Shown here one piece after another: positions 13,949 to 57,484 of a DNA stretch of 64,000 nt. Origin of the DNA: a phage. Position 1 is the first letter of the stretch, and every line of letters begins with the position of its first letter. Where the stretch lies: assembly GCA_026066175.1 (NCBI GenBank), contig GCA_026066175.1_4721.1; one strand, written 5' to 3'. A program made the position numbers and the translations under genes. Below the pieces are notes generated by a model. It was not told where the DNA came from. It made no database searches and saw only the letters and a list, made by a program, of their open reading frames with translations.

Positions 13949-15403
13949 ATGAAAATCAAACAAAGCTGGAAAGACGAATTACTTGCATTAGTTAACAGCA
14001 AAAACAGTTTACAACTGACATTAGACGACGTAAAGTTTGAATTAACCGAACCGGTAAGCGAAGTGCCCGGAACGGTCGTTGTTACAATCAAACCGAACGA
14101 TAATAGTCGCTACTTTAACGAGCAGTCTCTGACCTACGTCCGTCGAGACATTGCTAAAAACTTCACCGGGATTCCGTTACGGGTTATCGTTAAGCAAGAT
14201 ACCGCTGTAAGGGATATCATCAATACGATTGCTGAACGTTACGGATTGGTATTTGACACAACCGTCGACTTCCTCGAATCAGAGCTGAATAAACAAATTA
14301 CTTTCGCAGACACCGGTATTAAAGACGTTACTGTTCCGGTTGCAAACACGTCTTATGTTTGGGCTGGTAATCTTCAGTTCAATATTGCGAACGATACGTT
14401 AAGCTTGATTACTATCATCAAGAAAACCAATCTTACGAATCTGGTTTATCTGGATGGTGTTGAAGCTGACACATCGGGGTCGTTACTGTTAGCCACCACA
14501 GCACTTGTTAACGATAGCGTAAATAAGCCGATGGTTGAAAACGAAGATATCGTCGATGAATTCTACAACGTTCTTAATGCTCTAGCCAAATATGGTGACA
14601 TAACTGGCGATGAATTAAATGCCGCCTTACATGCGTACGATGAAGCAGAAAACAGGAATAAAACCACGGTAATAACTCTTGGTGATATCCAGTGTGTTGC
14701 AACAGAAAAAGACGATTGGGAAATTGGACGTTTACGCGGTCAGATGGTTCTCGCGCTCAAATCCGACAAACAACCTGAGCGCGAGAACACGTTAAGGTTG
14801 TTTACGAATGGCGGTGACGTCTCACTAACGTTAAACACAATGAAAGATATCAGTATCGATTGGGGTGATGGGAATAAAGTAACGTTGGATGCTGAAGAAA
14901 GATACGCGCACCACACATACGCCGACAATAACCAGTACCAAATCGAAATTGTGTCTCGTACGGACCCAGATGTGCTGCGACCAAATTATATTTCTGGGAG
15001 TGAGATAACCGAAGTAATTCACTGGGCTACTACTTCAACAATAGCTCTGAATTTTGTTGGATGCGATAATTTAGCGACTGTTCCAGATGAGATCCCAACT
15101 TCGTGGACAACGTTGGACAGCATGTTTGAAAGTTGTACGAATTTGAATGATCCGTCTATCTCTAACTGGAATACAAGTAACATCACATCAATGAATGGTA
15201 TGTTCGGCGGATGCACTAAATTTAACCAACCTTTAGCTGCCTGGGATGTCAGCTCAGTAACTGACATTGGTGGTATGTTTGTCGGATGTGACAGTTTTAA
15301 CCAAGATTTAAGTGGGTGGCGATTACCGTCAGGAGTAAACCACACCAATTACGATGATGGTGCTTTCTCGTGGCAGACGGAACATAAACCGACATTCCAG
15401 TAA
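13949..15403 (+). CDS. Protein with C-terminal DUF285/BspA-like repeats
   Basis: Repeated units TSMFESCTNLN...WNTSNITSMNGMFGGCTKFNQPL..WDVSSVTDIGGMFVGCDSFNQDLSGW; ATG preceded by AAAGGAAAAG. Confidence 0.5.
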   Translation: MKIKQSWKDELLALVNSKNSLQLTLDDVKFELTEPVSEVPGTVVVTIKPNDNSRYFNEQSLTYVRRDIAKNFTGIPLRVIVKQDTAVRDIINTIAERYGLVFDTTVDFLESELNKQITFADTGIKDVTVPVANTSYVWAGNLQFNIANDTLSLITIIKKTNLTNLVYLDGVEADTSGSLLLATTALVNDSVNKPMVENEDIVDEFYNVLNALAKYGDITGDELNAALHAYDEAENRNKTTVITLGDIQCVATEKDDWEIGRLRGQMVLALKSDKQPERENTLRLFTNGGDVSLTLNTMKDISIDWGDGNKVTLDAEERYAHHTYADNNQYQIEIVSRTDPDVLRPNYISGSEITEVIHWATTSTIALNFVGCDNLATVPDEIPTSWTTLDSMFESCTNLNDPSISNWNTSNITSMNGMFGGCTKFNQPLAAWDVSSVTDIGGMFVGCDSFNQDLSGWRLPSGVNHTNYDDGAFSWQTEHKPTFQ

Positions 15404-15422
15404 AAAAAAATAGTTAGCATAA

Positions 15423-15456
15423 CTTCCTCCCTACCCATAACGGGCGGGGAGGAAGG
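15423..15456. terminator. GC-rich hairpin (cttcctccc / ggggaggaagg), bidirectional position
   Basis: Lies between the convergent genes 13949..15403 (+) and 15473..15811 (-). Confidence 0.5.
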
Positions 15457-15472
15457 TTTATGTGGTTATGAC

Positions 15473-15811
15473 TTAGAACCAGAGTTCTTTCATGAAGTAG
15501 GCTTCCATATCGTAAATAAGCCACTCATCTGGGATTTCTAAAGGATCGTCTTCGGTTAAGGTGAGCATGTGCAGGGCGAACGCACGCTTAATATCTTCCA
15601 ACAGCTTATCATCACCGTAACCTTCGGGTAGTTTACGGTCAACCAGCTGGGTTTGTTTATAGACATCGCGGAACGCTTCAGGATTATGTTTATCCATCGG
15701 GAATTGTTCAGCAGCCTGAACCATCGAAAGCGTCCAGCTTACAACATTGTAACGCTCACCGTTAATTTCACTGAACTTATCATCGATTAAACAGATTTGT
15801 TGTATATTCAT
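15473..15811 (-). CDS. Hypothetical protein (112 aa)
   Basis: ORF on the gene strand. Confidence 0.4.
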   Translation of the reverse strand: MNIQQICLIDDKFSEINGERYNVVSWTLSMVQAAEQFPMDKHNPEAFRDVYKQTQLVDRKLPEGYGDDKLLEDIKRAFALHMLTLTEDDPLEIPDEWLIYDMEAYFMKELWF

Positions 15812-16701
15812 ACATTTTCTCCATTCTTATCTTGGCCGCAATCACACTCTTCGGTGTCTTTCTTACTTAAACGTAAGACACCGAGTGCGGCATGCTTGAG
15901 TTCTTGCAAAGCGCTTTTCAGCTGACCTTCTTCATCGAAATCAAAATACTTCTCGTTGTAGCTTAATGCTGGAATCATATTTACGAGAGGTTCGATGGCA
16001 GGCATCAGCATCTCAATCACAACCTTAGGATCAACGAAACGTTCGAACCCTTCAGGAAGTTTACTGGTGATAACTTTGTCGTTCTTGATGAAGAATTTAT
16101 TCTTGAACAGATCGTCAAGGATAGCATTCTCTTCATCGGTACGTTCAGCGTAAGGCCGATCGATCATCTGTACGAAAACACCGTTAAGGGCTTCAGGCAT
16201 TGCGGGGTTCTCACGAAGGTTAAACCCTGCTGGGATTTCGATATCGATCTTCGCCCAGTCGATAACCTGATGGTCTCGCGTATAGATGACGTCAACCTCC
16301 CACGCCAAGCCATCGGTACCTTCTACGGTATAACGTGTTTTAGCTTGACCTTCTGGTGCCATACGCTCGATAGCATCGAACATCTCGACCGGAATTTCCA
16401 CTTCGCTTTCCATGGCATCCCCTGGACCGCGATAAACCTTCGTGGTCATGAAGTACTTCGGTTCTTCGTTGTCGATCTGGATTGCTCGAGCACGTACCTG
16501 GCCTTTAACACCACCCACCGACGTGTTATCGTACAACCACTGGTGTTGCACCATGTGTTCAATTTTCGTGGCGTTCTGACGTAGGATATCTACACCGTCT
16601 TCAGCCAGTTTACCAAAGAAGACCAGCTCACGTTCCTGCTGTGTCTCTCCGCTCAACATCATTAAATTGGCGATTTGTCTCACGCCTTTTACTTTCGACA
16701 T
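15808..16701 (-). CDS. Hypothetical protein (297 aa)
   Basis: ORF on the gene strand; 4-nt overlap with the downstream gene. Confidence 0.45.
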   Translation of the reverse strand: MSKVKGVRQIANLMMLSGETQQERELVFFGKLAEDGVDILRQNATKIEHMVQHQWLYDNTSVGGVKGQVRARAIQIDNEEPKYFMTTKVYRGPGDAMESEVEIPVEMFDAIERMAPEGQAKTRYTVEGTDGLAWEVDVIYTRDHQVIDWAKIDIEIPAGFNLRENPAMPEALNGVFVQMIDRPYAERTDEENAILDDLFKNKFFIKNDKVITSKLPEGFERFVDPKVVIEMLMPAIEPLVNMIPALSYNEKYFDFDEEGQLKSALQELKHAALGVLRLSKKDTEECDCGQDKNGENV

Positions 16702-26989: not shown

Positions 26990-28576
26990 TTAGAAGTTGC
27001 CTTTGGTGGTTACAGCATCAACCAGGTTGAACAAATCGATGCTCAGCTTATACACTTCCTGCTGGCTACGGTTAAGCAGCGGGCTATAAGCAGAAGGGTT
27101 GATGTTCGGCATGGTGTATGGAATCGGGGCAGAGCCATCAACGCTGATCTTGAACTGGCTATCCAGGAACAGGTTAATTGCGCCACTTACCATAACCGCA
27201 TTCGGGTTGTTCCCTAACATCGACGGTAAGATGTTGATGATCATATCGGAACGCATCTGCTCAGCAGCACGGTTACAGTCGTAGCCTTTAATGAACGGTA
27301 CCGCATCGGTAACCGCAACCGCCCACTGGCCTGGCATGATGCCCAGCTCTGGGTGACCGTGGTTGTCTGCAATGAAACGGAACGATTCCAGCATGCGATA
27401 CGTCATCGCCGCAGGCATCATGGACGCCAGCGAGGAGCAATAGATCGTTGGATAATCGATCACATCCCAGCTTTGGCTATCCGTTGGCATCCAACCGAAT
27501 TCGGTGGTTGCTGATGTACCGCGACGGGCTTCCACATACGGGAACAGCGTCAGGACATCACGGATATGTTCACCGAAATGCCGTTTCATTTCACCCCAGC
27601 TCAGGCTACCGTTAAACGAAAAGCCCTCATCACGCATGATCTCATTGAACATCGTGTGCGCAACCAGCGGTTGTTCACGGACGTATTGAGAAGCCTCAAC
27701 GTAAACATCCTCGTTGTTGGCCTCGCCGGGATGAGAACCTAGCTCGAAGGTCTGACGAACGGTACCCACGCTATCGAACGCTTTCTTCAGATAGATGGTT
27801 GGGATATTTGTATCGATGCTGGCGGGTTTTACCTTCTCTGTTGCAAAACACAGCGCAGCATCCATACCACGAACAACCGGTTCCTGTTGTGGTCGGTATG
27901 TTGAGTGGTTCACGACGTCCGCATACATCGGGTCGAACTGTTGCATCACGTTCTGCATCGAAGGATCCATGAACTGATTGTCCATACCACCATTACCGAG
28001 CCAACGTGCAGTCGATGCGTAGGTCAGCGTATCCTGCACACGGGTACTGAACTGAACGTCGTTGTTCATTGGGTCATACGCCCCGGTAAGCAGATGGATA
28101 GCATCTTGAGGAGCTGCACGTACAACCTGTTTACCGAACATATCAACGGTGGTTGTTTCCAGCACGATAATGACGTTGGTGAAGAAGAACTGCAATTCGT
28201 TCGGTAGATCTTGTACGCGGGTTGTGTATGCATCCAACGGAACAGAATAATCGGTGTATCCAGACACGTAATGAACACGTTTGCTTCCTGGAGCTAACGC
28301 AACCGATTCTTCTGCTGCCATCATGAAATGGAAACGACGGGTACCCCAACCATTAGCAATCTCTGAAACCCCTTCCGGCTGTGCGGTTTGCTCTAACATC
28401 CCGGCAGCCAGTTTATTGATCGCTGATGGTGTTGTCGCGGTGCCGAATCGCGTTGTGTTAATAAACTCTTCCAGGCTATGCATGCTGTCAGCGTGGAACT
28501 GAATTGGACGACGGTGCACATTGTTGTATGGTGCGGTTTCAACCATCAGGATTTCACGAACATTCATCGATACCAT
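26990..28576 (-). CDS. Hypothetical protein (528 aa)
   Basis: Long ORF with consistent coding composition. Confidence 0.45.
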   Translation of the reverse strand: MVSMNVREILMVETAPYNNVHRRPIQFHADSMHSLEEFINTTRFGTATTPSAINKLAAGMLEQTAQPEGVSEIANGWGTRRFHFMMAAEESVALAPGSKRVHYVSGYTDYSVPLDAYTTRVQDLPNELQFFFTNVIIVLETTTVDMFGKQVVRAAPQDAIHLLTGAYDPMNNDVQFSTRVQDTLTYASTARWLGNGGMDNQFMDPSMQNVMQQFDPMYADVVNHSTYRPQQEPVVRGMDAALCFATEKVKPASIDTNIPTIYLKKAFDSVGTVRQTFELGSHPGEANNEDVYVEASQYVREQPLVAHTMFNEIMRDEGFSFNGSLSWGEMKRHFGEHIRDVLTLFPYVEARRGTSATTEFGWMPTDSQSWDVIDYPTIYCSSLASMMPAAMTYRMLESFRFIADNHGHPELGIMPGQWAVAVTDAVPFIKGYDCNRAAEQMRSDMIINILPSMLGNNPNAVMVSGAINLFLDSQFKISVDGSAPIPYTMPNINPSAYSPLLNRSQQEVYKLSIDLFNLVDAVTTKGNF

Positions 28577-39397: not shown

Positions 39398-41296
39398 TTA
39401 GAACAGGTTGAATGCCCCGCCCATGCCGTTACCGCCCACATTCGGACGATCGTTACGTGCGTAGATGTTACCGCTGATGGTACCCAGACCACGAGCACGT
39501 GCTGCCATGTTACCACGAACAGCGGTACCTGCCAGATGCTGGATGTTCTCAGGACGGATGGTGAAGCCTGCTTCAGCAGCCGCTTCAATCAGTGCCTGCA
39601 GCGCCAGCGGATCGAAATCATAACGCATCGCCCAGCCAGTTTGTTCCCAGCTACCAGACAGAACGCGGTCGATGATTTCGTGACGAGCAACCACACGCTG
39701 AGACATCGACATATCGGTACGGTCGAAGCTGTCTTCCCAAGCTTCTACGGTATCCGGGTTAGTGATGTTCATCATGTACAGATCGTCCATATCACGAATA
39801 TCGTGACGGTTACCGTCCTGGTGGTTGTAGTGACCCAGCGGGATACGGTTACCGGTCGCGTAGACCAGCGGTGAGCCGTACGGATATTTCTTGCTGAAGC
39901 AACCCAGGGTAACATCATCGAACGCACGGAAGAGGGCTTTGTAGCCTTCGGAGTATTCCTGTACGTCCCCTTCAACATTACCCGAGAAGATCTTCTCAGC
40001 CGCCGGGATCATACGCAGCAGCCAGCTGTACTCACCTTCTTCTGGTACGTCGATAGAGATCAGCAGAGACGGATACAGAACCTGTTGCAGGAACTTGTAA
40101 ATCTGCTCGTTGGTTTGCGTAGACAGATCCAGCGGTGCAGTCACTTCAGGATCCAGCACCATCGCCAGAGCACCTGGGTTATGCGGACCAATACCACGAG
40201 CTGCGTTGCTGATTAAAGACTGCGCCCACGCCATGCCGCTGTTCAGCGTAGCGATGGTACCAATCAGACCCAGCACGAAGCTGTTCGGCGTGAACGCATC
40301 CAGTTCCAGCGGATACATGCTGGTCATTACGTAGCGCGGTTGGTACTGTACAGTTGGCGGTACCGGATAACCGTTAACCAGAACAGGACCTTGCTGGAAG
40401 GTCGGGTTCTGCGGGCTGTAGGTCAGATCGATATAACCGGTGGATGCAACCAGACGCTGCTGGCTATCGTAATCGCCCATCGCTTGACGGATGCGGTTAG
40501 AGATAGTTACAGTAATGTCGGAGCGTACCGGGTTACCCGCGATATCGCTATCCTGCATGCCGCTGGTGTTATACTGAACGCTACTGATCGGCTGATCGCT
40601 TGCCATCATACCCAGGTTGAACTGAGGCAGGCCCAGTCTGTCAGCAAAACGCATTTCGGTTGCCGTCTGGATCGCGTTATCCGCTGCGGAAAGCAGGGTG
40701 GTTGCCAGATGCGCAGATTCAGCAGTGATTTCATTGGTCACAACAGCCAGACCAGCGATACGTACCGTACCGTTAGCTTTACCACCGATAGCCGCATACA
40801 TCGCTGCCATGACTTCGTTGATGAACGTGCCGTTCAGGTTATCCACCCAAGTACATGGTACCAGGATGTTACCGTGAGGACCACGTTCTTCACGACGTGG
40901 CAGCGGAGCCAGGCCAGCAACCAGCGGAAGGACGTAACCGAAGAAGTGGTTATGATCACCCACTTTTACACCGCTCATCACAACCAGAGTCGGATACGGT
41001 ACGCTGTACTGATTCGGGTCAACCGCAACAAAGATGAAGTCGTCTTTGAACTGGGTATCTTCCAGATATTTCTCCATCAGACGACGGAGATTCAGTACCT
41101 GCTCGGAGCCGGTATTACGGCTGATACGACGGCTCAGTGTACGGTTAATCGTACGCATCGTATGAGTTACTTTAGGACGGTCAGCAAAATCTGCAGCGGT
41201 TTCGACCGCCTCGTTAGCATGCTGCGCCGTGCGGGTTTCAGCCACGCGGATGTCTACGTTATCGTTACCGTTATTGTTACGTACGTCTAAGCCCAT
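39398..41296 (-). CDS. Candidate chimallin-like phage nucleus shell protein (632 aa); major capsid protein not excluded
   Basis: Size of about 70 kDa, high-expression-like codon choice, its own promoter motif and terminator, and proximity to a PhuZ-like tubulin and phage RNA polymerase genes. Confidence 0.45.
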   Translation of the reverse strand: MGLDVRNNNGNDNVDIRVAETRTAQHANEAVETAADFADRPKVTHTMRTINRTLSRRISRNTGSEQVLNLRRLMEKYLEDTQFKDDFIFVAVDPNQYSVPYPTLVVMSGVKVGDHNHFFGYVLPLVAGLAPLPRREERGPHGNILVPCTWVDNLNGTFINEVMAAMYAAIGGKANGTVRIAGLAVVTNEITAESAHLATTLLSAADNAIQTATEMRFADRLGLPQFNLGMMASDQPISSVQYNTSGMQDSDIAGNPVRSDITVTISNRIRQAMGDYDSQQRLVASTGYIDLTYSPQNPTFQQGPVLVNGYPVPPTVQYQPRYVMTSMYPLELDAFTPNSFVLGLIGTIATLNSGMAWAQSLISNAARGIGPHNPGALAMVLDPEVTAPLDLSTQTNEQIYKFLQQVLYPSLLISIDVPEEGEYSWLLRMIPAAEKIFSGNVEGDVQEYSEGYKALFRAFDDVTLGCFSKKYPYGSPLVYATGNRIPLGHYNHQDGNRHDIRDMDDLYMMNITNPDTVEAWEDSFDRTDMSMSQRVVARHEIIDRVLSGSWEQTGWAMRYDFDPLALQALIEAAAEAGFTIRPENIQHLAGTAVRGNMAARARGLGTISGNIYARNDRPNVGGNGMGGAFNLF

Positions 41297-41356
41297 TTGG
41301 GAATCCTCTTTTTCTTAACTTTTAAATGACGTCATTGAATCAGCTTTTTCTCGCTC

Positions 41357-41395
41357 ATTCACCTAGGTAATATAACCCTGAAATTTTTTTCAATA
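41357..41395 (-). promoter_or_regulatory. Candidate phage early promoter, copy C (upstream of the chimallin-like gene)
   Basis: Plus-strand cacctaggtaatataaccctgaaattttttt matches copies A, B and D. Confidence 0.4.
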
Positions 41396-41534
41396 TTGGT
41401 GCAACCTTATTGAACGATATAAACCCCCAGGTGAATGCTGCCGAGAAGCAACATTCTATCTACATATAATCAGGATATGTCTGTAAACTTTTACTTCTCG
41501 TCATATCCGTTTACTATCTTCTTACGGAGTTCGT

Positions 41535-42668: not shown

Positions 42669-44822
42669 TTACTCTGCGGTTTCTTTTTTCGGTTGGTAGC
42701 TTGCAGCGATATCTTGGGCTAACAGTGTGTTGTTTTTATTCGAAATGAAAATACCGTAACTTTCCATTAATGCGTAATACGAGCGAACGAGTGTAGAAAT
42801 CAATCGACGAATATCCATACCTTGGATGAAAATATCGGGAAGCCCAGAGGCTTCGATCACCGGTAATGGTATCGTTAAATTGCTTATCGTTTTCTTATCG
42901 TTACGTACAATCCAATCACGGAAACGTTGTTGTAACCCTTTATCCTCCCAGGAATCAATCCAATCATTAAGAAGCGTTTTGTTCTTCGTTGCCAATGGTA
43001 CACGAACCCCAACATAAGGCGGTTCAGGGCAATGGCCGTACGATTGCGCAAACACCTCTTCCCACATGTCGTACGACTGCTTGGTAACCGCAACATGGGG
43101 TTTTACTTTAACGCGTGTTAAGAAATCAGGATCGCCGCGTTTCATCGATTCCACGATTTCGTTTTCTAACGCGATGATATCATCAAGTACCAATCTGATA
43201 CTGATCTTCTCGTTACGTAACAGTTTATCCATGATACCGCACATCATGCGCTCAACACGTTGTACGATCATTTTTGGTGCTGATGCGTCACGCATAACGG
43301 GACCTTTCAATTCCAGTTTCGGCGGATTGATTGGAACCCCTTCACGCATGGTCATGTAACCGTAATAGTTTTTACCCATTGAAGTCAACGACAGAATCAA
43401 GAACATATACTCGTTCTTCATTTCCATCACGTACATATGCTCTTTCGCGACGCCGATATTACCCGAACACATTGCCATCAGATGAACCGTAATCTGCGTA
43501 ACCAGGTAGATAAGCGTATTCGCTAAGCGCGTTGAAATCGGATTGATCTCCATGTTGCCAAACCGCCACTGAACCCACTCCTGACAGGTAAATACCGTTG
43601 AGTCGGTATCAGACAACACACCCACTTCACGGATGGCTGACGGAAACGCATAAACACCAGCGGGTTGGTTCTCGGTACGCCAGAACGCCATAATCAGGTC
43701 AGCGTAACTCTGGATACGCTGCAACATTAACTTTGTCGTGGCTGCGGTGAGACGATAACCCAGTTCGTTGCCTTTTTCTAACGCAACGTAAATCGCTTCA
43801 CCATTTAAGAACTCGGTACACTGTGCTGTAATCCAGGCAACCGTGTTATTATCCATGGATGCAATAATGGCTTTCGCCTCTTCCATCGTTTCAACAGGTT
43901 CGGTGGCCAATTCACATAACGAATCAAGGAACCCACGAACAAACTCAGGGTTCAGTTCGCGTAACGAATACAAGTTGTTGCTATACATGTAACAAGCACG
44001 TTCCAACGGCGTTAAGCCGTTAATCAACTCCTGAATGACCAGTTCTTTTTCCGGGTCGAAAATATAGCGATGCAGGCATTTTGATACATTAGCCCAAACC
44101 TCTTCCGGTGTCGGGTAATGTAGCTGGTATTTTACCATCACCTGCTCAATGGCTTTACGGTCGCTGTTACGGACAATGCTTACGATATTTTCAATCGCGA
44201 TATCACAATCGTAATAATGAAAATTACCTGCCAGGAACCGTTCGTTATTCGCATTCGCTGAACCGGAAGCGCATCGGCATGTCGTGGTTAAACTCGGGTG
44301 TGCGATCGGGTTATAAAAAGGATTGAATTTAGATGCCTGTGTTCCCGACAAACTGTTGTTGTCTAACTTGGTATTGGTCTGTCGTTTATCATGCAGTTCC
44401 GCTTCGTCTTTACGTCCATGCGCTTGTGCAATAGACATCTGTTTCTTTTGTTTCTTACGCAGCTTACCGTTTTCAACCGCAAAGTCGCTTAACACGCTGG
44501 AACGTGTTTCACGTGGATAACAGTTCGCCCATACCGGGGTAATGATTAAATTATTTTCTTTGATATCGTTGATATACTGACTGAACTTAATAAGTTCTTT
44601 TTCGCGGTTCCCTTCTGTACGTTGTGTTAAAACAAGACAGTCGGGATCGACCATCCCATGTGCACCACCTGGCTTGATGGTATCAAGTACGAACCGTAAT
44701 GCTTCTTGTTGAGAAATACCACGCATGCGCATTAAGAACAGGGTATAATCCTGCACCGCTTCTTTGGTCATATCCAACGTACGACCGTATCCGTTTTCGT
44801 CGTAAAAGAACGGATTTTCCAT
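42669..44822 (-). CDS. Large hypothetical protein (717 aa)
   Basis: Long ORF; an isolated LSDTDS is reminiscent of polymerase motif C but not sufficient for a call. Confidence 0.4.
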   Translation of the reverse strand: MENPFFYDENGYGRTLDMTKEAVQDYTLFLMRMRGISQQEALRFVLDTIKPGGAHGMVDPDCLVLTQRTEGNREKELIKFSQYINDIKENNLIITPVWANCYPRETRSSVLSDFAVENGKLRKKQKKQMSIAQAHGRKDEAELHDKRQTNTKLDNNSLSGTQASKFNPFYNPIAHPSLTTTCRCASGSANANNERFLAGNFHYYDCDIAIENIVSIVRNSDRKAIEQVMVKYQLHYPTPEEVWANVSKCLHRYIFDPEKELVIQELINGLTPLERACYMYSNNLYSLRELNPEFVRGFLDSLCELATEPVETMEEAKAIIASMDNNTVAWITAQCTEFLNGEAIYVALEKGNELGYRLTAATTKLMLQRIQSYADLIMAFWRTENQPAGVYAFPSAIREVGVLSDTDSTVFTCQEWVQWRFGNMEINPISTRLANTLIYLVTQITVHLMAMCSGNIGVAKEHMYVMEMKNEYMFLILSLTSMGKNYYGYMTMREGVPINPPKLELKGPVMRDASAPKMIVQRVERMMCGIMDKLLRNEKISIRLVLDDIIALENEIVESMKRGDPDFLTRVKVKPHVAVTKQSYDMWEEVFAQSYGHCPEPPYVGVRVPLATKNKTLLNDWIDSWEDKGLQQRFRDWIVRNDKKTISNLTIPLPVIEASGLPDIFIQGMDIRRLISTLVRSYYALMESYGIFISNKNNTLLAQDIAASYQPKKETAE

Positions 44823-45131
44823 AAACCCTCCAAAAGTCGTGTAGCCTATCTACATCATCTCGTATATCTGTTAAAAAAGAAAGACGGCATAAAAAAGAAC
44901 CGATCCAGCCGAAGCCAGATCGGTTGAAAGGATATTAATAACAGGGAAATGAAAGTGTGACTGAAAGATATCGATGATGTTCGTGAAATAAGATCTCTCG
45001 TATACAGTGATGCCAGATCAGAGGGAGGTTGTAAACGAGAGACGGTTCACTAAAGGAGTAACAAACGCGAACCTATCTTATTTCACCGATGGCGCTAACC
45101 ACTCAAAATATATAGTGCTGTATGTAAAAGT

Positions 45132-45545
45132 TTACTGATTAATCAAGTCGTTAGCAACGATCTTGGTGTAGCCTGCTTGATTAAGAATCTGATTAATTTT
45201 TGTTACATCTGTCGCATCATCAATAACGATGCTGGGTTTATAAATCAACGTCTTGGTAACAACGATCGTACTCTCCTTAATCCAGGGAATCCCTAGGATC
45301 ACATACTCGCCATCAGCGGTGATGACCTCAACGTAGTTATATTTCGTTGGATCATTCGGAACGCTAGACGGAAGCCGGGAATAGATCTGCTGATGGATAG
45401 CGTCAACATCACGGCCGTTACGTACAGCGGTACGGTAGTTGTATACCGCACTAATTTCCACTCCGTTGAAGTTAACCCCAAGTTCTGAGGCGTACACATC
45501 AAAACTCACAACAGAGCCAATCTTTTCTAAATCAGAAGCTGGCAT
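45132..45545 (-). CDS. Hypothetical protein (137 aa)
   Basis: ORF on the gene strand. Confidence 0.4.
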   Translation of the reverse strand: MPASDLEKIGSVVSFDVYASELGVNFNGVEISAVYNYRTAVRNGRDVDAIHQQIYSRLPSSVPNDPTKYNYVEVITADGEYVILGIPWIKESTIVVTKTLIYKPSIVIDDATDVTKINQILNQAGYTKIVANDLINQ

Positions 45546-45556
45546 AATAGCATCCT

Positions 45557-45955
45557 TTATTCAAAAATGTATTCGTATCCGAACGTTGTCGCTGACCAAA
45601 CTCGGATAGATGATAATGTTCCGCCACGATAAAACGTTTTTGTAAATTCCATATCCTGGACAACACGATAATAAACACGTGCGATGATACGTACAACGAG
45701 ATTTCGTGATAACGATCTCTCTTCGCAGTATTCGTCGATAAAGTCATCGTCGATATCCGATAAGACAACATCTGCGATTTCTTGCAGGAGATTCCTCATC
45801 AGCATCTGCTTTCCTTCGATACCCCATCCCGACAAACAGTAATCGTCTTCTGCCTGACTGTAGATGTCATAGACCGCCTGTTCAAGCAGTTGCTCAAGAT
45901 AGTGATCATCGCGTTTTATAACATGGCGACGGCGCTCAGAGGCGTATTTTTCCAT
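45557..45955 (-). CDS. Hypothetical protein (132 aa)
   Basis: ORF on the gene strand. Confidence 0.35.
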   Translation of the reverse strand: MEKYASERRRHVIKRDDHYLEQLLEQAVYDIYSQAEDDYCLSGWGIEGKQMLMRNLLQEIADVVLSDIDDDFIDEYCEERSLSRNLVVRIIARVYYRVVQDMEFTKTFYRGGTLSSIRVWSATTFGYEYIFE

Positions 45956-46398
45956 CCTGTGTTTCTCTTGTTAGGCGTATGTATTAACGACGCCACCGTC
46001 TTTTCTGGATCATCCCATAATGCGCGACGAAAACTGGACACCACCATAACGGTAGGATAGATCTGTACAACCTCCCAACCGTAACGATGTGCATTCGTCG
46101 TGCGCCCAACATTGAACAAACACAATTGATTCAAGAAACAGAGCTGCATCTTCGTAAACAATAGCGTGTCTTCACGTTTCACGTAACCGAGGATATAGGC
46201 GTTCTCGAACGCTTCACGTGCTAAGACAGGACGGTTAAGATAACGTAGCGACAACACCAACAACGCGGTGATACGCAACGGATCTTCGGGTCCTTTTAAA
46301 TCATTCAGCTCATTCTGCAACCAATCCGGAATCGCCACCGTTAGGCGATAGGTGTCTGTTCCACGATCAACCACATTTAATGTTGAAAAAGGCAACAT
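45916..46398 (-). CDS. Hypothetical protein
   Basis: ORF on the gene strand; start uncertain. Confidence 0.35.
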   Translation of the reverse strand: MLPFSTLNVVDRGTDTYRLTVAIPDWLQNELNDLKGPEDPLRITALLVLSLRYLNRPVLAREAFENAYILGYVKREDTLLFTKMQLCFLNQLCLFNVGRTTNAHRYGWEVVQIYPTVMVVSSFRRALWDDPEKTVASLIHTPNKRNTGWKNTPLSAVAML

Positions 46399-53111: not shown

Positions 53112-54126
53112 TGTTCATTTTCTCCGTTGCAACAAATCGTTCAAGTTCATTCAGTAAACGTGCTTTTAACGTCGCATCCACGTCTGGTGCATGTTTATCA
53201 CGGTACCATTCTGTTCCGTTGTACTGTAAACTTACATGCCATGTGCCTAATGGACTATCTTCTGCCGCTGCGATGAAGTTCTTAACACCGGTTTTGGTTG
53301 GATACTCCATGATCGGCATGGCTTTATCTGGATCCATCAGCGTAAGATCCTGGAAGTTATAATCCAGAAGTGTCAACATGCGTTGCTTACGTAGTAACAC
53401 TCCGCATTGCAGGATGGTAAAATCGATTCCCCAGAAACGGAGTTTACCGCCCACGCCTATTGGCGTATGCCCACGATAAACCGCAAGATAGATTTCCCCT
53501 TTATCGGTTTCTTTGTTGTAGCCTGCGATGAACGCTGCGGTGATCAACGGCTGTTCGCCTTTCGCTAAAAAAGCAGGATGGCTACGATACAACCAATCGC
53601 TACGAATCAAATCGGTAACCTGACCTAAACGTGCGGTGGGTACCATCGTTGACCCTAAGGTTTCATCAACCGGGATCTGATAATACTCGAACAGAACCCC
53701 ATCGACTTCTTCGGTTGCATAAGGCGTACGCTCTGGATCGTTAAGTACCTTACGAAGTTTCTCATCGATTTCGTTTACACGATCGTCATGCGCTTTCTCA
53801 CGGCTTCCAACAACGAAAGCAACCAGATTGCGTACACTTACGAAGACGTCATCTTTTTCGGTCTCGGTAAGATCTTCCGCATCAGGCATCGTTGTCCAGT
53901 GCAAAGGACCTTCTACCACCTTAAGCCACTTATCTTCACGTTCAGGATAAACAAACGGTTTATGAACAGGAACATCCGTGTGTTGAACACGTAACAGTAA
54001 ATTGCATAACGGAGGTAATGTTTTCTCTAACGGTGGAACAATACCTGATGTAACAGCAATGACATAACGGTTAAGAACAAGAGAAGCGGAATAGGTAATG
54101 TTATCTAATCCTGGTAATTGATCCAT
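53089..54126 (-). CDS. Hypothetical protein (345 aa)
   Basis: ORF on the gene strand; an AT-rich region lies upstream. Confidence 0.4.
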   Translation of the reverse strand: MDQLPGLDNITYSASLVLNRYVIAVTSGIVPPLEKTLPPLCNLLLRVQHTDVPVHKPFVYPEREDKWLKVVEGPLHWTTMPDAEDLTETEKDDVFVSVRNLVAFVVGSREKAHDDRVNEIDEKLRKVLNDPERTPYATEEVDGVLFEYYQIPVDETLGSTMVPTARLGQVTDLIRSDWLYRSHPAFLAKGEQPLITAAFIAGYNKETDKGEIYLAVYRGHTPIGVGGKLRFWGIDFTILQCGVLLRKQRMLTLLDYNFQDLTLMDPDKAMPIMEYPTKTGVKNFIAAAEDSPLGTWHVSLQYNGTEWYRDKHAPDVDATLKARLLNELERFVATEKMNNDVNDEQ

Positions 54127-55973: not shown

Positions 55974-56057
55974 GAAGGTAATGTAGGTTTATTTTAATCT
56001 CCATTTCGCGATGATATGACAGTCTTTATTACGTTTACCATCTGAGGGAGCATGCTC

Positions 56058-57296
56058 ATGTCTTCTATTTTACAGGTGTTTAATGCGCATGCGGAAGGCA
56101 TTGACATCGACGAGTATTTTGTTAATCAGGTTATCCGTTACGCAACACGCTTCCGTACGCAAGACCAAGAACACATGCGTTTTTTCGGTGGGGTTTTATT
56201 AGGCGTACAGAAAATCCGATTCACAACAAGACATAACGATATGTGGTTTTCCGACGTCTTGATGATGGATGAAGAAAGCTTACGACGCGATTTAAGTAAA
56301 CTGCCCTTTTACAACACGCAAACCAACCGTGTTGCGTCAAATGCGTTTAACCTTAGCTGCTGTTGGTTGCTTCATGCGATTTTCCACAGCAAACAGATCA
56401 AAAAAGAAAAGGTTCGTGAAGCCGGGATGCTTGCAGCAATGCAAGTCCTTCATTATAAATTCATTTGTGGCCTGGTGGCACGCCGTTATCCGTACAACGC
56501 TGATCCAGCGATTGCTATTAAGGCGTATGATGAGTTGACCCTCAAATCAGGCATCAAGCGCATGAACAGCTGGAACGAGTATATCGATGAACGCTGTAAT
56601 GCTATCATCGCACGTAATAGCACCCACTTCAGTCGTTGGTCGACCTTAGAACCGGATAGCGTTGCTGAGCGTTTCGTACGTGACGTGAATACCGGGATTC
56701 GTAAAGTAATCAACCGTATCACCGACACCTATTACGCGATGTATGAAGAAGGTAAGAAAATCGGCACGTCATCACAAACCGTAGAATTAGATGACGGTCT
56801 CGCTGTTCGCGACATTAAACGTAACGAAACCACCTACCGGCAATACCTGTTCGAAATCGCTTATGACCGAACAAGTTTCGTTAAACGCGAACTAATGGTG
56901 GTTATCCTCGACGTGCATCATACAACCAACCTCCTGTCTCTTGAACGCGCATTAAGCTATATCAGCGCTAATGTAGAACGTCCAACGAAAGACGGAAAAC
57001 AGGTCTCTCAAATGCTGCGGCTTGTAATGGAACATGCGATCGAATACATCATCTTGAATAAAGTCGATATGCGTGACTTAACGTTCTTATTCTACATGCG
57101 TAACGTCTACACGTCTAACCGTACCAGCAACCCGAAACTGTTAGAACTTCGTAAGATCGGCTCTGAAGTCATTAAGAAAGCAACCAACGCAAGAAACGAT
57201 GCTGAAGCAGCAGCAACCCGCACCGGGGTCTTTCTGTATATCCTGCTTCGTGTGTTTAGCCGTAATTACTATGTTCGTCGTGCGATGTCTCGGTAA
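56058..57296 (+). CDS. Hypothetical protein (about 412 aa)
   Basis: Two ATGs at 56052 and 56058; the second has better spacing from GAGGGAG. Confidence 0.45.
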   Translation: MSSILQVFNAHAEGIDIDEYFVNQVIRYATRFRTQDQEHMRFFGGVLLGVQKIRFTTRHNDMWFSDVLMMDEESLRRDLSKLPFYNTQTNRVASNAFNLSCCWLLHAIFHSKQIKKEKVREAGMLAAMQVLHYKFICGLVARRYPYNADPAIAIKAYDELTLKSGIKRMNSWNEYIDERCNAIIARNSTHFSRWSTLEPDSVAERFVRDVNTGIRKVINRITDTYYAMYEEGKKIGTSSQTVELDDGLAVRDIKRNETTYRQYLFEIAYDRTSFVKRELMVVILDVHHTTNLLSLERALSYISANVERPTKDGKQVSQMLRLVMEHAIEYIILNKVDMRDLTFLFYMRNVYTSNRTSNPKLLELRKIGSEVIKKATNARNDAEAAATRTGVFLYILLRVFSRNYYVRRAMSR

Positions 57297-57435
57297 AGTT
57301 TTACTGCTGTTGGTTATTATTTGAAGCATAGGGCTTCACCCAGGAGTACCATCCCTTTAAGCCATTTGTCCTCTCCTGGTTAACTGTCGTTCTCTCACAG
57401 TGCTCGACAGACCAAAAATGCTCAGGCCCCATAGT

Positions 57436-57464
57436 CCTCCTCTGGGAATGGAACCCAGAGGAGG
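57436..57464. terminator. GC-rich hairpin (cctcctctggg / cccagaggagg)
   Basis: Eleven-bp stem downstream of the plus-strand gene. Confidence 0.5.
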
Positions 57465-57484
57465 CTATGTTTATTATGCTGTCT

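Follow-up and report, generated by a model that had tools for sequence, protein, structure and literature searches.

The stretch of DNA analysed here (contig GCA_026066175.1_4721.1 of assembly GCA_026066175.1, 64,000 nt; hereafter the window) comes from a phage closely related to Escherichia phage Goslar, a jumbo phage of the Chimalliviridae that forms a nucleus and is the E. coli model for such phages. The subject is an intergenic gap of 309 nt (44823-45131) free of open reading frames (ORFs), together with the terminator, promoter-like elements and predicted RNA unit that it contains. The gap lies between two minus-strand genes (table 1): upstream, the gene for an SH3-fold protein associated with phage DNA polymerases (SH3DP, 137 aa), whose TAA stop codon is at 45134-45132, and downstream, the gene for a divergent DNA polymerase that is 97% identical to the product of Goslar gp244. 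The 600 bases around the gap were 88.5% identical to Goslar, the sole match in the phage collection, and in Goslar the same gene order encloses a gap of 298 nt in which the sole annotation is a 'putative terminator'. The initial annotation of the window had described a non-coding gap of about 300 nt before the 717-aa gene that was longer than most intergenic regions there. Both statements held: the gap is one of the two longest among 73 intergenic gaps (median 40 nt, only four of at least 250 nt), with gap lengths taken from crude ORF-based gene calls.

The only plus-strand ORFs touching the gap, 45007..45138 (GTG start, 43 aa) and 44699..44824, are both short. When the gap was scanned by itself, neither strand had an ORF of at least 12 codons, and ATG is absent from the sense strand before the terminator. 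Small ORFs in the gaps of relatives were not conserved, and nothing in these gaps pointed to a small protein-coding gene. Indels of 1, 2 and 3 nt separate the gaps of close relatives and, since some of these are not multiples of three, the gap is taken to be non-coding.

No tRNA or tmRNA was found in the window using ARAGORN, in agreement with the earlier remark that the gap holds no tRNA-like sequence. The RNA-family (Infernal) scan that had been proposed as a check likewise returned nothing, with no match to Rfam (release 15) in the whole window at gathering thresholds. With E values up to 10 allowed for the gap, the sole matches were to MicF, VrrA and SraG, with 16-17 bits where the gathering scores are 50-79, and these matches were carried mostly by the terminator hairpin. 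The lack of an Rfam match shows only that the element in the gap belongs to no curated family. The RNA unit in the gap had no similarity or long complementarity to E. coli genomes. No sigma-70 promoter (TTGACA, 16-18 nt, TATAAT; at least 9 of 12 matches) was found in the gap, and a scan of 44000-46000 gave one site, at 45712-45684, outside it. The apparent early promoter motif of the clade, that of the virion RNA polymerase (tttcacGGcTATATTACyTAnGTGA), was not found in the gap either; Goslar has eight good copies (226695, 201944, 172978, 166069, 160791, 142800, 113797 and 2567, all on the minus strand), including the proximal promoter of the gene for chimallin, the nuclear-shell protein.

The hairpin aaccgatc..gatcggtt, noticed in the initial annotation without being recognized as a terminator, is real and has the form of a canonical intrinsic terminator on the minus strand. 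A terminator scan gave AACCGATCTGGC-TTCG-GCTGGATCGGTT followed by CTTTTTTATG (as RNA, AACCGAUCUGGC-UUCG-GCUGGAUCGGUU and then CUUUUUUAUG), with six G-C among its 12 pairs. Pair probabilities were 0.97-1.0 with no competing fold in the ensemble, and by its sequence the element is an intrinsic (factor-independent) terminator. It stands 206 nt after the SH3DP stop codon and ~75 nt before the polymerase start, dividing the gap into a non-coding unit on the SH3DP side and a promoter-like element with a leader on the polymerase side. AUG after the U6 run completes the UAUG seen after terminators of this phage family, and a second T-run lies 12 nt past the U-run. The A-rich tracts that had been listed are present on the plus strand and correspond to these two runs on the minus strand, namely the U-run of the terminator and the T-run at 44878-44873. 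Goslar carries its annotated terminator at the matching place, with 0 of 38 positions differing, and the terminator was identical in nine of nine Goslar-like genomes, five of which had been retrieved by an exact match to 24 nt of the stem-loop and so could not differ there. The scan found no terminator between the SH3DP stop codon and 44925; transcripts of the upstream operon must therefore cover the structured region, at least as their 3' untranslated region (UTR).

In the Goslar genome, a terminator hairpin that is near-identical from site to site, CC(C/T)TCCTCCTTCCCTTACGGGTTGGAGGAGGG, was seen at eight places (e.g. 134604, 72009, 27765 and 4168; minus strand), usually followed by TTATG. The 3' arm of this recurrent hairpin together with the ATG resembles a strong ribosome-binding site and start codon.

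The minus strand between the upstream gene and the end of the terminator specifies a predicted non-coding RNA unit of ~213 nt (unit A), composed of a small 5' hairpin, a Y-shaped three-way junction, a U/C-rich linker and the terminator (table 1). The Y is closed by a perfect 12-bp stem (45086-45075 with 44994-44983) and bears hairpin 2 (45073-45044) and hairpin 3 (45041-44995). The large loop of hairpin 3 displays an anti-Shine-Dalgarno-like segment whose core, CCUCCCUCUGAUCU, was invariant in nine genomes. In the linker, the first 26 nt (GAACAUCAUCGAUAUCUUUCAGUCA) were nearly invariant, and the 3' half has a ~19-nt indel in Goslar-type genomes. The fold z score was -4.6 for a 217-nt unit and lower still for the Y alone (table 1), compared with a background of 60 random minus-strand segments of the window (mean -0.84, standard deviation 1.13; one of the 60 below -3.8). 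The antisense strand folded less well than the sense strand (z = -2.9 vs -3.9), and the unit was exceptionally structured in three lineages (z = -4.3 to -4.9).

The consensus fold was derived from nine distinct sequences, including five extra Goslar-like genomes, which were obtained by searching metagenome contigs for exact matches to the terminator sequence. RNAalifold gave the same Y-shaped fold for all nine, with 99.7% of the cells paired. Seven of the 36 pairs vary, one among G-C, G-U and A-U and the others between Watson-Crick and G-U, and the single broken cell lies at a helix end. In hairpin 3, one side has gained a G, and the base facing it has changed from U to C. Pairing is kept by eight of nine substitution events (p roughly 0.004 as a rough estimate, if each had a chance of ~0.4 of doing so). 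Read on the minus strand, the wobbles are all G-U, consistent with an RNA transcribed in the same direction as the genes. Most of the variation fell in the hairpin-2 loop, at the junctions and in the 3' half of the linker. The fold is conserved and consistent rather than proven. The five contigs (L036-L040, 209-249 kb) represent further near-complete Goslar-like genomes, and across the gap one of them, L039 (JACXXQ010000003.1), has nearly the same sequence as the window.

Neither a riboswitch nor an attenuator was recognized in the unit: the terminator and all stems of the Y stood at probability ~1 with no competing helix in the ensemble, and no riboswitch family matched. An 8-nt repeat, GAUCUGGC, shared by the hairpin-3 loop and the 5' arm of the terminator, was considered as an antiterminator and rejected; it is not conserved in Goslar and had no support in the ensemble.

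Divergence from Goslar was compared with a neutral yardstick, the four-fold degenerate sites of the two flanking genes, of which 35-40% differ between the window and Goslar. In the gap, 24 of 291 aligned bases differ (~8%), and the whole gap is therefore concluded to be under purifying selection. By part, differences amounted to 1/27 in the upstream promoter-like element (P1), 14/122 in the 5' hairpin and Y, 2/39 aligned nt plus one indel in the linker, and 7/65 in the downstream promoter-like element (P2) and leader.

P1 stands at the upstream end of unit A and has the motif GTAAAnnTTTAC-N17-TTTTG, in which the 12-bp palindrome GTAAACTTTTAC contains the SH3DP stop codon and is followed by 17 nt and then TTTTG. 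Judged by motif likeness, transcription would start near G45104, the counterpart of which in Goslar is the G at 176,737. The window contains three copies of the string GTAAANNTTTAC, where 0.10 would be expected, and none of 100 shuffles gave as many as three; for a relaxed motif that takes in the start-site half, with an expectation of 0.27, there are four copies in the window and five in the 237-kb Goslar genome. Across the nine Goslar-like genomes only the spacer varied, as expected for a two-part promoter. In IMG/VR viral contigs, the motif was found only in Goslar-type genomes and in six AT-rich matches resembling chance.

An element of the P1 type, GTAA(A/G)NNTTTAC-N-TATATG-TAG, lies ~190 nt upstream of the chimallin gene and is kept in all four lineages of the Goslar clade; a looser form (A-rich, TAC, 15-20 nt, TATG-TAG) precedes this gene in Ea35-70, SA002, Proteus phage 10 and phiKZ. 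The motif was present at the distal chimallin promoter in every chimallivirus examined, i.e. in eight phages (the window, Goslar, two remoter members of the Goslar clade designated L005 and L006, Ea35-70, SA002, Proteus phage 10 and phiKZ). In phiKZ, differential RNA-seq of the shell gene PHIKZ054 gave a primary start with the early motif and a secondary start with a middle motif (Wicke et al., PMC8244752), the latter consisting of TACT ~22 nt upstream of the start with A-rich sequence before it (PMC8244752). With an A-rich tract and TAC(T) ~20 nt upstream of its predicted start, P1 matches this description of a chimallivirus middle-type promoter, and it was assigned to that type from its likeness in position and sequence to the distal chimallin promoter and the phiKZ middle motif. 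Other copies of the rare motif precede further non-coding stretches, two of them in the window.

The divergent region upstream of the chimallin gene (41297-41534) carries two promoter motifs, one stacked on the other and both conserved among chimalliviruses. Of these, the distal motif reads GTAAAAGTTTAC...TATATG-TAG, with the palindrome at 41483-41494. The proximal motif, which has an A/T-rich run before it and is visible in all chimalliviruses compared, is the early motif, GGTTATATTACCTAGGTGA. The stacked motifs agree with the published dual start sites of phiKZ PHIKZ054.

The half of the gap downstream of the terminator reads, in order, TATG, a T-run ending in AAC, GATGATG-TAGATAGG, GGAGGG and ATG. 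P2, composed of the T-run, AAC and AGATATACGAGATGATG-TAGATAGG (GATG-TAGATAG), resembles the distal chimallin promoter in its forms TTTAC-AGACATATCCTGATTATATG-TAGATAG and TTTAC-AGACATATCC..TATATG-TAGATAG, and from this motif likeness we infer its start site and activity. P2 was invariant in the nine genomes, and the ~30 nt of leader after the predicted start varied.

A terminator hairpin followed by a T-run was seen at the SH3DP-polymerase junction in every chimallivirus examined, with (T)TATG directly after the hairpin in most of those checked. In SA002, Proteus phage 10 and Ea35-70, the junction holds only terminator, T-run and leader, in gaps of 104-125 nt. As these distant relatives have a short junction, the polymerase does not need the extra ~200 nt, and the addition is specific to the Goslar clade. 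Inserts are present at this junction in other phages too: 201phi2-1 has an extra small ORF with a terminator on either side, and phiKZ a ~70-nt mini-unit, likewise enclosed by two terminators, that starts after TTTAC-N17-TAATG. The polymerases of L005 and L006 were 64% and 58% identical to that of the window, and each is preceded by a gap of ~300 nt that starts with TAA-N3-TTTAC-N16-TTGAG and ends with a terminator, TATG and a T-run. In these two gaps, the 170-190 nt between promoter and terminator are unrelated in sequence and equally structured (z = -4.5 and -4.3). In 201phi2-1 (L008, 1433-1976), the 544-nt stretch between SH3DP homolog and polymerase is annotated with the minus-strand gene gp82; a plus-strand ORF of ~107 aa with the Shine-Dalgarno sequence GGAGTG and two flanking terminators seems the better reading.

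Table 1. Features of the SH3DP-polymerase junction and related elements in the window.
Feature	Position	Strand	Composition or basis
SH3DP gene	45132..45545	-	Pfam PF20287, E = 4.3e-36; homolog of Goslar gp243
P1, candidate phage middle-type promoter	45102..45135	-	palindrome GTAAACTTTTAC (45135-45124), variable spacer, TATATATTTTGAG (45114-45102)
Predicted non-coding RNA unit (unit A), ~213 nt	44891..45104	-	no ORF, no Rfam or tRNA match, fold z, low divergence
5'-terminal small hairpin, GUGGU-UAGC-GCCAU	45089..45102	-	consensus fold of nine sequences; pairs invariant, only loop varies
Y-shaped three-way junction, 104 nt	44983..45086	-	z = -5.95; pair probabilities ~1.0; consensus fold
CCUCCCUC, anti-Shine-Dalgarno-like, in ~27-nt loop of hairpin 3	45021..45028	-	mean unpaired probability 0.74
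U/C-rich linker, 57 nt, predicted mostly single-stranded	44926..44982	-	unpaired probability 0.67-0.77
Intrinsic terminator	44891..44925	-	12-bp stem and UUCG loop (44925-44898), C, U6 (44896-44891)
P2, promoter-like element for polymerase gene	44853..44880	-	T-run and AAC (44878-44870), spacer, GATGATG; predicted start ~G44853
Polymerase 5' leader	44823..44852	-	~31 nt from predicted start; Shine-Dalgarno GGAGGG (44831-44826); ATG 44822-44820
Divergent family-B DNA polymerase gene, 717 aa	42669..44822	-	Pfam PF20286, E = 1.3e-202
Gene for nuclear-shell protein chimallin	39398-41296	-	gene call in window
Unit B, candidate small RNA	57293-57475	+	GTAAAGTTTTAC-N-TTATTATTTG directly after stop codon of ORF 56052-57296
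Unit C	54439-54275	-	TAAATCTCTAC-N16-TTTGAG, then ~135-nt core almost invariant vs Goslar

Two copies of the rare motif in the window are followed by sequences termed units B and C. Unit B has ~150 nt of non-coding structured sequence (z = -3.9) ending in a hairpin at 57436-57464, lies between convergent genes and is ~5% diverged from Goslar, against 35-40% at neutral sites. Being placed between convergent genes, it cannot be a leader. The core of unit C contains the hairpin CCUCUCUCCCU-AAAAA-GGAGAGGG and sits in a gap of ~350 nt upstream of an ORF starting near 54125; no intrinsic terminator was found for unit C.

Two regions of the Goslar genome also contain the motif. An unannotated gap of 854 nt (14972-15825) starts with GTAAAAGTTTAC...TATTTG at 15717 (minus strand), followed by G+C-rich structured sequence, GGCCCCUUCGGGGGACGGGGGAGGAGCG..., and may hold a longer non-coding RNA or a leader. 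At 81190-83288, the GTAAAAGTTTAC palindrome stands directly after gp068, a 'DNA polymerase' gene with an exonuclease domain, and is followed by a NUMOD1/HNH endonuclease gene and an unannotated gap of 819 nt; this could be an intron or homing-endonuclease arrangement.

As regards function, the U6 tail and the predicted U/C-rich single-stranded linker of unit A would together provide the structure looked for in an Hfq-type small RNA. Within the phage, the best pairing joined the linker to codons 2-9 of an ORF that begins at 28576 (13 + 9 nt with one bulge, -23.1 kcal/mol). It beat 60 of 60 shuffles narrowly (per-shuffle minima with a mean of -18.7 and a best of -22.3), shrinks to 12 + 6 nt in Goslar and is made with a run of common codons. 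Complementary k-mers clustered on one segment, the complement of which resembles a common codon string (D-D-V-R-E), and the hairpin-3 loop had no target better than shuffles. The string CCUC[CU][CU], which could pair with strong GGAGG ribosome-binding sites of the phage, is shared by units A, B and C, the gaps of L005 and L006 and the mini-unit of phiKZ; this recurrence was noticed after the fact and carries little information.

The gap is best explained as a compact minus-strand transcription junction made up of P1, a non-coding RNA of ~213 nt, the terminator and P2 for the polymerase gene, a reading to which we assign a probability of about 0.6. P1, a rare middle-type promoter overlapping the SH3DP stop codon, would start transcription at ~G45104. 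The product would be a ~213-nt RNA in which the 5' hairpin is followed by the 104-nt Y, exposing CCUCCCUCUGAUCU in its third loop, and by the single-stranded U/C-rich linker. The terminator would end both this RNA and read-through from the upstream operon, so that the same sequence would double as the 3' UTR of the operon. Immediately after it, P2 would start the polymerase mRNA at ~44853, with a leader of ~31 nt and a strong Shine-Dalgarno sequence. The initial annotation had put forward two alternatives, a small RNA and a promoter serving the large gene; the sequence supports both together, with P2 as the candidate polymerase promoter and the predicted small-RNA unit located upstream of the terminator that had been missed.

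Several observations weigh against this explanation. Both start sites were placed by motif similarity and not from transcripts. Conservation of sequence would, taken alone, fit an element acting as DNA equally well. Covariation was weak, with one two-sided change, and the observed value was reached in 164 of 500 shuffles of an alignment of nine closely related sequences. The body of the RNA was not recognizable in L005 and L006, with which no k-mers of at least 8 nt were shared beyond promoter and terminator. A covariance model of the 5' hairpin and Y matched only itself and Goslar; with filters off, its best match in the L005 gap scored 5.9 bits (E = 5.7). Target searches in E. coli genomes and the phage gave no convincing target for the RNA unit. 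As the body is not shared with L005 and L006, any function would be lineage-specific or dependent on very short motifs.

Among explanations involving an RNA, a stand-alone RNA was favoured over a leader or attenuator, since the terminator and the stems of the Y are near probability 1 without an alternative fold, a separate promoter-like element follows the terminator, and unit B cannot be a leader. Our best guess is a stand-alone regulatory or protein-binding small RNA acting through its two conserved single-stranded segments. A role in trans is tentative, being put at clearly less than even odds. More speculative, and on balance doubtful, is a wider proposal in which a few conserved, structured non-coding RNAs of Goslar-like phages (units A, B and C and one in the 854-nt Goslar gap near 15.7 kb) would all depend on one rare promoter class, whose only other use would be the distal transcript of the shell gene. 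Such a set would form a dedicated RNA regulon switched on with shell production, whose members, each bearing the anti-Shine-Dalgarno-like CCUC[CU][CU] motif, could act as translational regulators or as sponges for phage or host mRNAs or RNA-binding proteins.

The explanation that otherwise survives best, and one that we regard as unlikely without being negligible, is that unit A is only the structured 3' UTR of the SH3DP operon, stabilizing or insulating the mRNA, with P1 inactive and the polymerase promoter the sole promoter in the gap. Operon transcripts must cover the sequence in any case, given that no terminator precedes 44925, and structured 3' ends are known to protect mRNAs. Processed 3'-UTR RNAs have also been reported in phages, such as ncRNA1 and ncRNA2 of PAK_P3 (PMC10914365). 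Such a UTR leaves unexplained, however, why conservation of the P1 motif equals that of the terminator, the spacer alone varying, and why a motif that is very rare in the genome recurs at the distal chimallin promoter; moreover, distant relatives place the terminator directly after the SH3DP stop codon and manage without a UTR of this kind.

Considered rather improbable is a role of unit A as leader and attenuator of the polymerase gene. A leader of ~280 nt would start at P1, and the terminator would be conditional, through factor- or stage-dependent antitermination, yielding a short abortive RNA and tuning polymerase dosage in the pattern of the '5'-UTR premature termination' units of phiKZ. 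There is precedent for the layout: a promoter, less than 250 nt and a terminator before a gene describe 34 of 42 terminators within phage 5' UTRs, with two transcript modes (PMC10914365), and eight of 11 small RNAs of 201phi2-1 are of this type (PMC11512511). The terminator of unit A, however, forms with a probability of ~1 and no antiterminator fold was found; a protein antiterminator is conceivable. The conserved P2 element after the terminator also speaks for separate transcription of the polymerase gene, and unit B has the same promoter type without a downstream gene in the same orientation.

Function at the level of DNA was judged very improbable, whether as a replication origin or R-loop primer site beside the polymerase gene or as an operator for a protein recognizing the GTAAAnnTTTAC palindrome. 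In T4, transcripts from the middle-mode promoters of oriF and oriG prime replication, and we know of no chimallivirus in which replication origins have been defined. The 12-bp palindrome resembles a dimer-binding site and is strongly over-represented, and conservation alone does not separate RNA from DNA function. Against such a role, the cumulative GC skew of Goslar has no inflection near 176.5 kb (its minimum is at 215 kb), the substitutions in stems are G-U wobbles that pair only in a minus-strand RNA, and the antisense strand folds less well, as given above.

A decayed remnant of an inserted small gene, of which only promoter and terminator had been kept and which had no present function, can be dismissed almost entirely: the junction does accept insertions, as in 201phi2-1 and phiKZ, and its body differs completely between lineages, but that body diverges four to five times more slowly than the four-fold degenerate sites, which argues strongly against such decay, is exceptionally structured in all three lineages and has changed in its stems so as to preserve pairing.

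For annotation, the outcome is an ordinary one, the gap consisting of a terminator, promoter-like elements and a previously unannotated non-coding unit. Working promoter motifs for the Goslar clade were gained, namely the early motif and the rare GTAAAnnTTTAC type, and the occurrence of this rare promoter class at both the chimallin gene and other non-coding stretches is the most interesting lead. If expressed, unit A would be a conserved structured phage RNA beside replication genes and would join units B and C in a small group whose promoter class is also that of the shell gene. For Goslar, an RNA-seq time course covering 5-60 min has been published (bioRxiv 10.1101/2023.09.20.558163), and the candidates are easy to test, as RNA-seq data, antisense-oligomer and dCas13d knock-down exist for this phage family. 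The RNA biology of nucleus-forming jumbo phages is little charted, including the export of transcripts from the phage nucleus, the stage-specific promoters of the non-virion RNA polymerase and the non-coding RNAs.

Among cellular RNAs, the type I 3'-UTR small RNAs of enterobacteria (DapZ, MicL) have their own promoters, are transcribed with host sigma factors, bind Hfq and pair through seeds with known targets. Like unit A as predicted, they have a promoter at or overlapping the end of the upstream coding sequence, share the terminator of the mRNA and carry a U-rich single strand and a U-tailed hairpin as a 3' module. Unit A differs in that its promoter would be phage-specific (no sigma-70 match) and no target was found. 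In T4 and RB69, the DNA polymerase gp43 binds a hairpin in its own leader, and the T4 operator overlaps the ribosome-binding site of the polymerase gene. Operator and unit A are alike as structured RNA elements directly preceding the DNA polymerase gene of a phage. Between the fold of unit A and the polymerase leader, however, stand a strong terminator and a predicted promoter, so that this fold would be present in the polymerase mRNA only after read-through. With phage morons, which are autonomous promoter-gene-terminator cassettes, unit A has in common that it appears as a self-contained cassette between two conserved core genes; its cargo, however, is non-coding.

The closest comparisons are with phiKZ and 201phi2-1. 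Like the middle promoter of phiKZ, P1 has an A-rich GTAAA and then TTTAC ~20 nt upstream of a T-W-T-G start; the strict form in the Goslar clade is a 12-bp palindrome present only four to five times per genome, mostly before non-coding sequence, whereas phiKZ has ~30 middle promoters, and the assignment of P1 to this class is by sequence analogy and not from mapped start sites. By ONT-cappable-seq, 17 candidates for short RNAs running from promoter to terminator (<250 nt) were mapped in phiKZ, two of them with northern-blot confirmation (PMC10914365), and 11 such candidates in 201phi2-1 (PMC11512511). These RNAs, for example the 141-nt TU237 RNA upstream of PHIKZ302 in phiKZ and sRNA005 of 201phi2-1 ('sRNAgp182' in phiKZ), come from the same virus family as unit A and have the same layout, i.e. 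a phage promoter, a structured RNA of less than 250 nt and an intrinsic terminator just before a gene, and they are likewise conserved among close relatives. They belong to a different genus and locus, no similarity in sequence or structure to unit A was detected, and they were seen experimentally, whereas unit A was recognized by sequence analysis. Unit A would then be the same kind of object as the short RNAs of phiKZ and 201phi2-1, a type that is already known, in the form of a unit that had not been annotated before and is probably transcribed.

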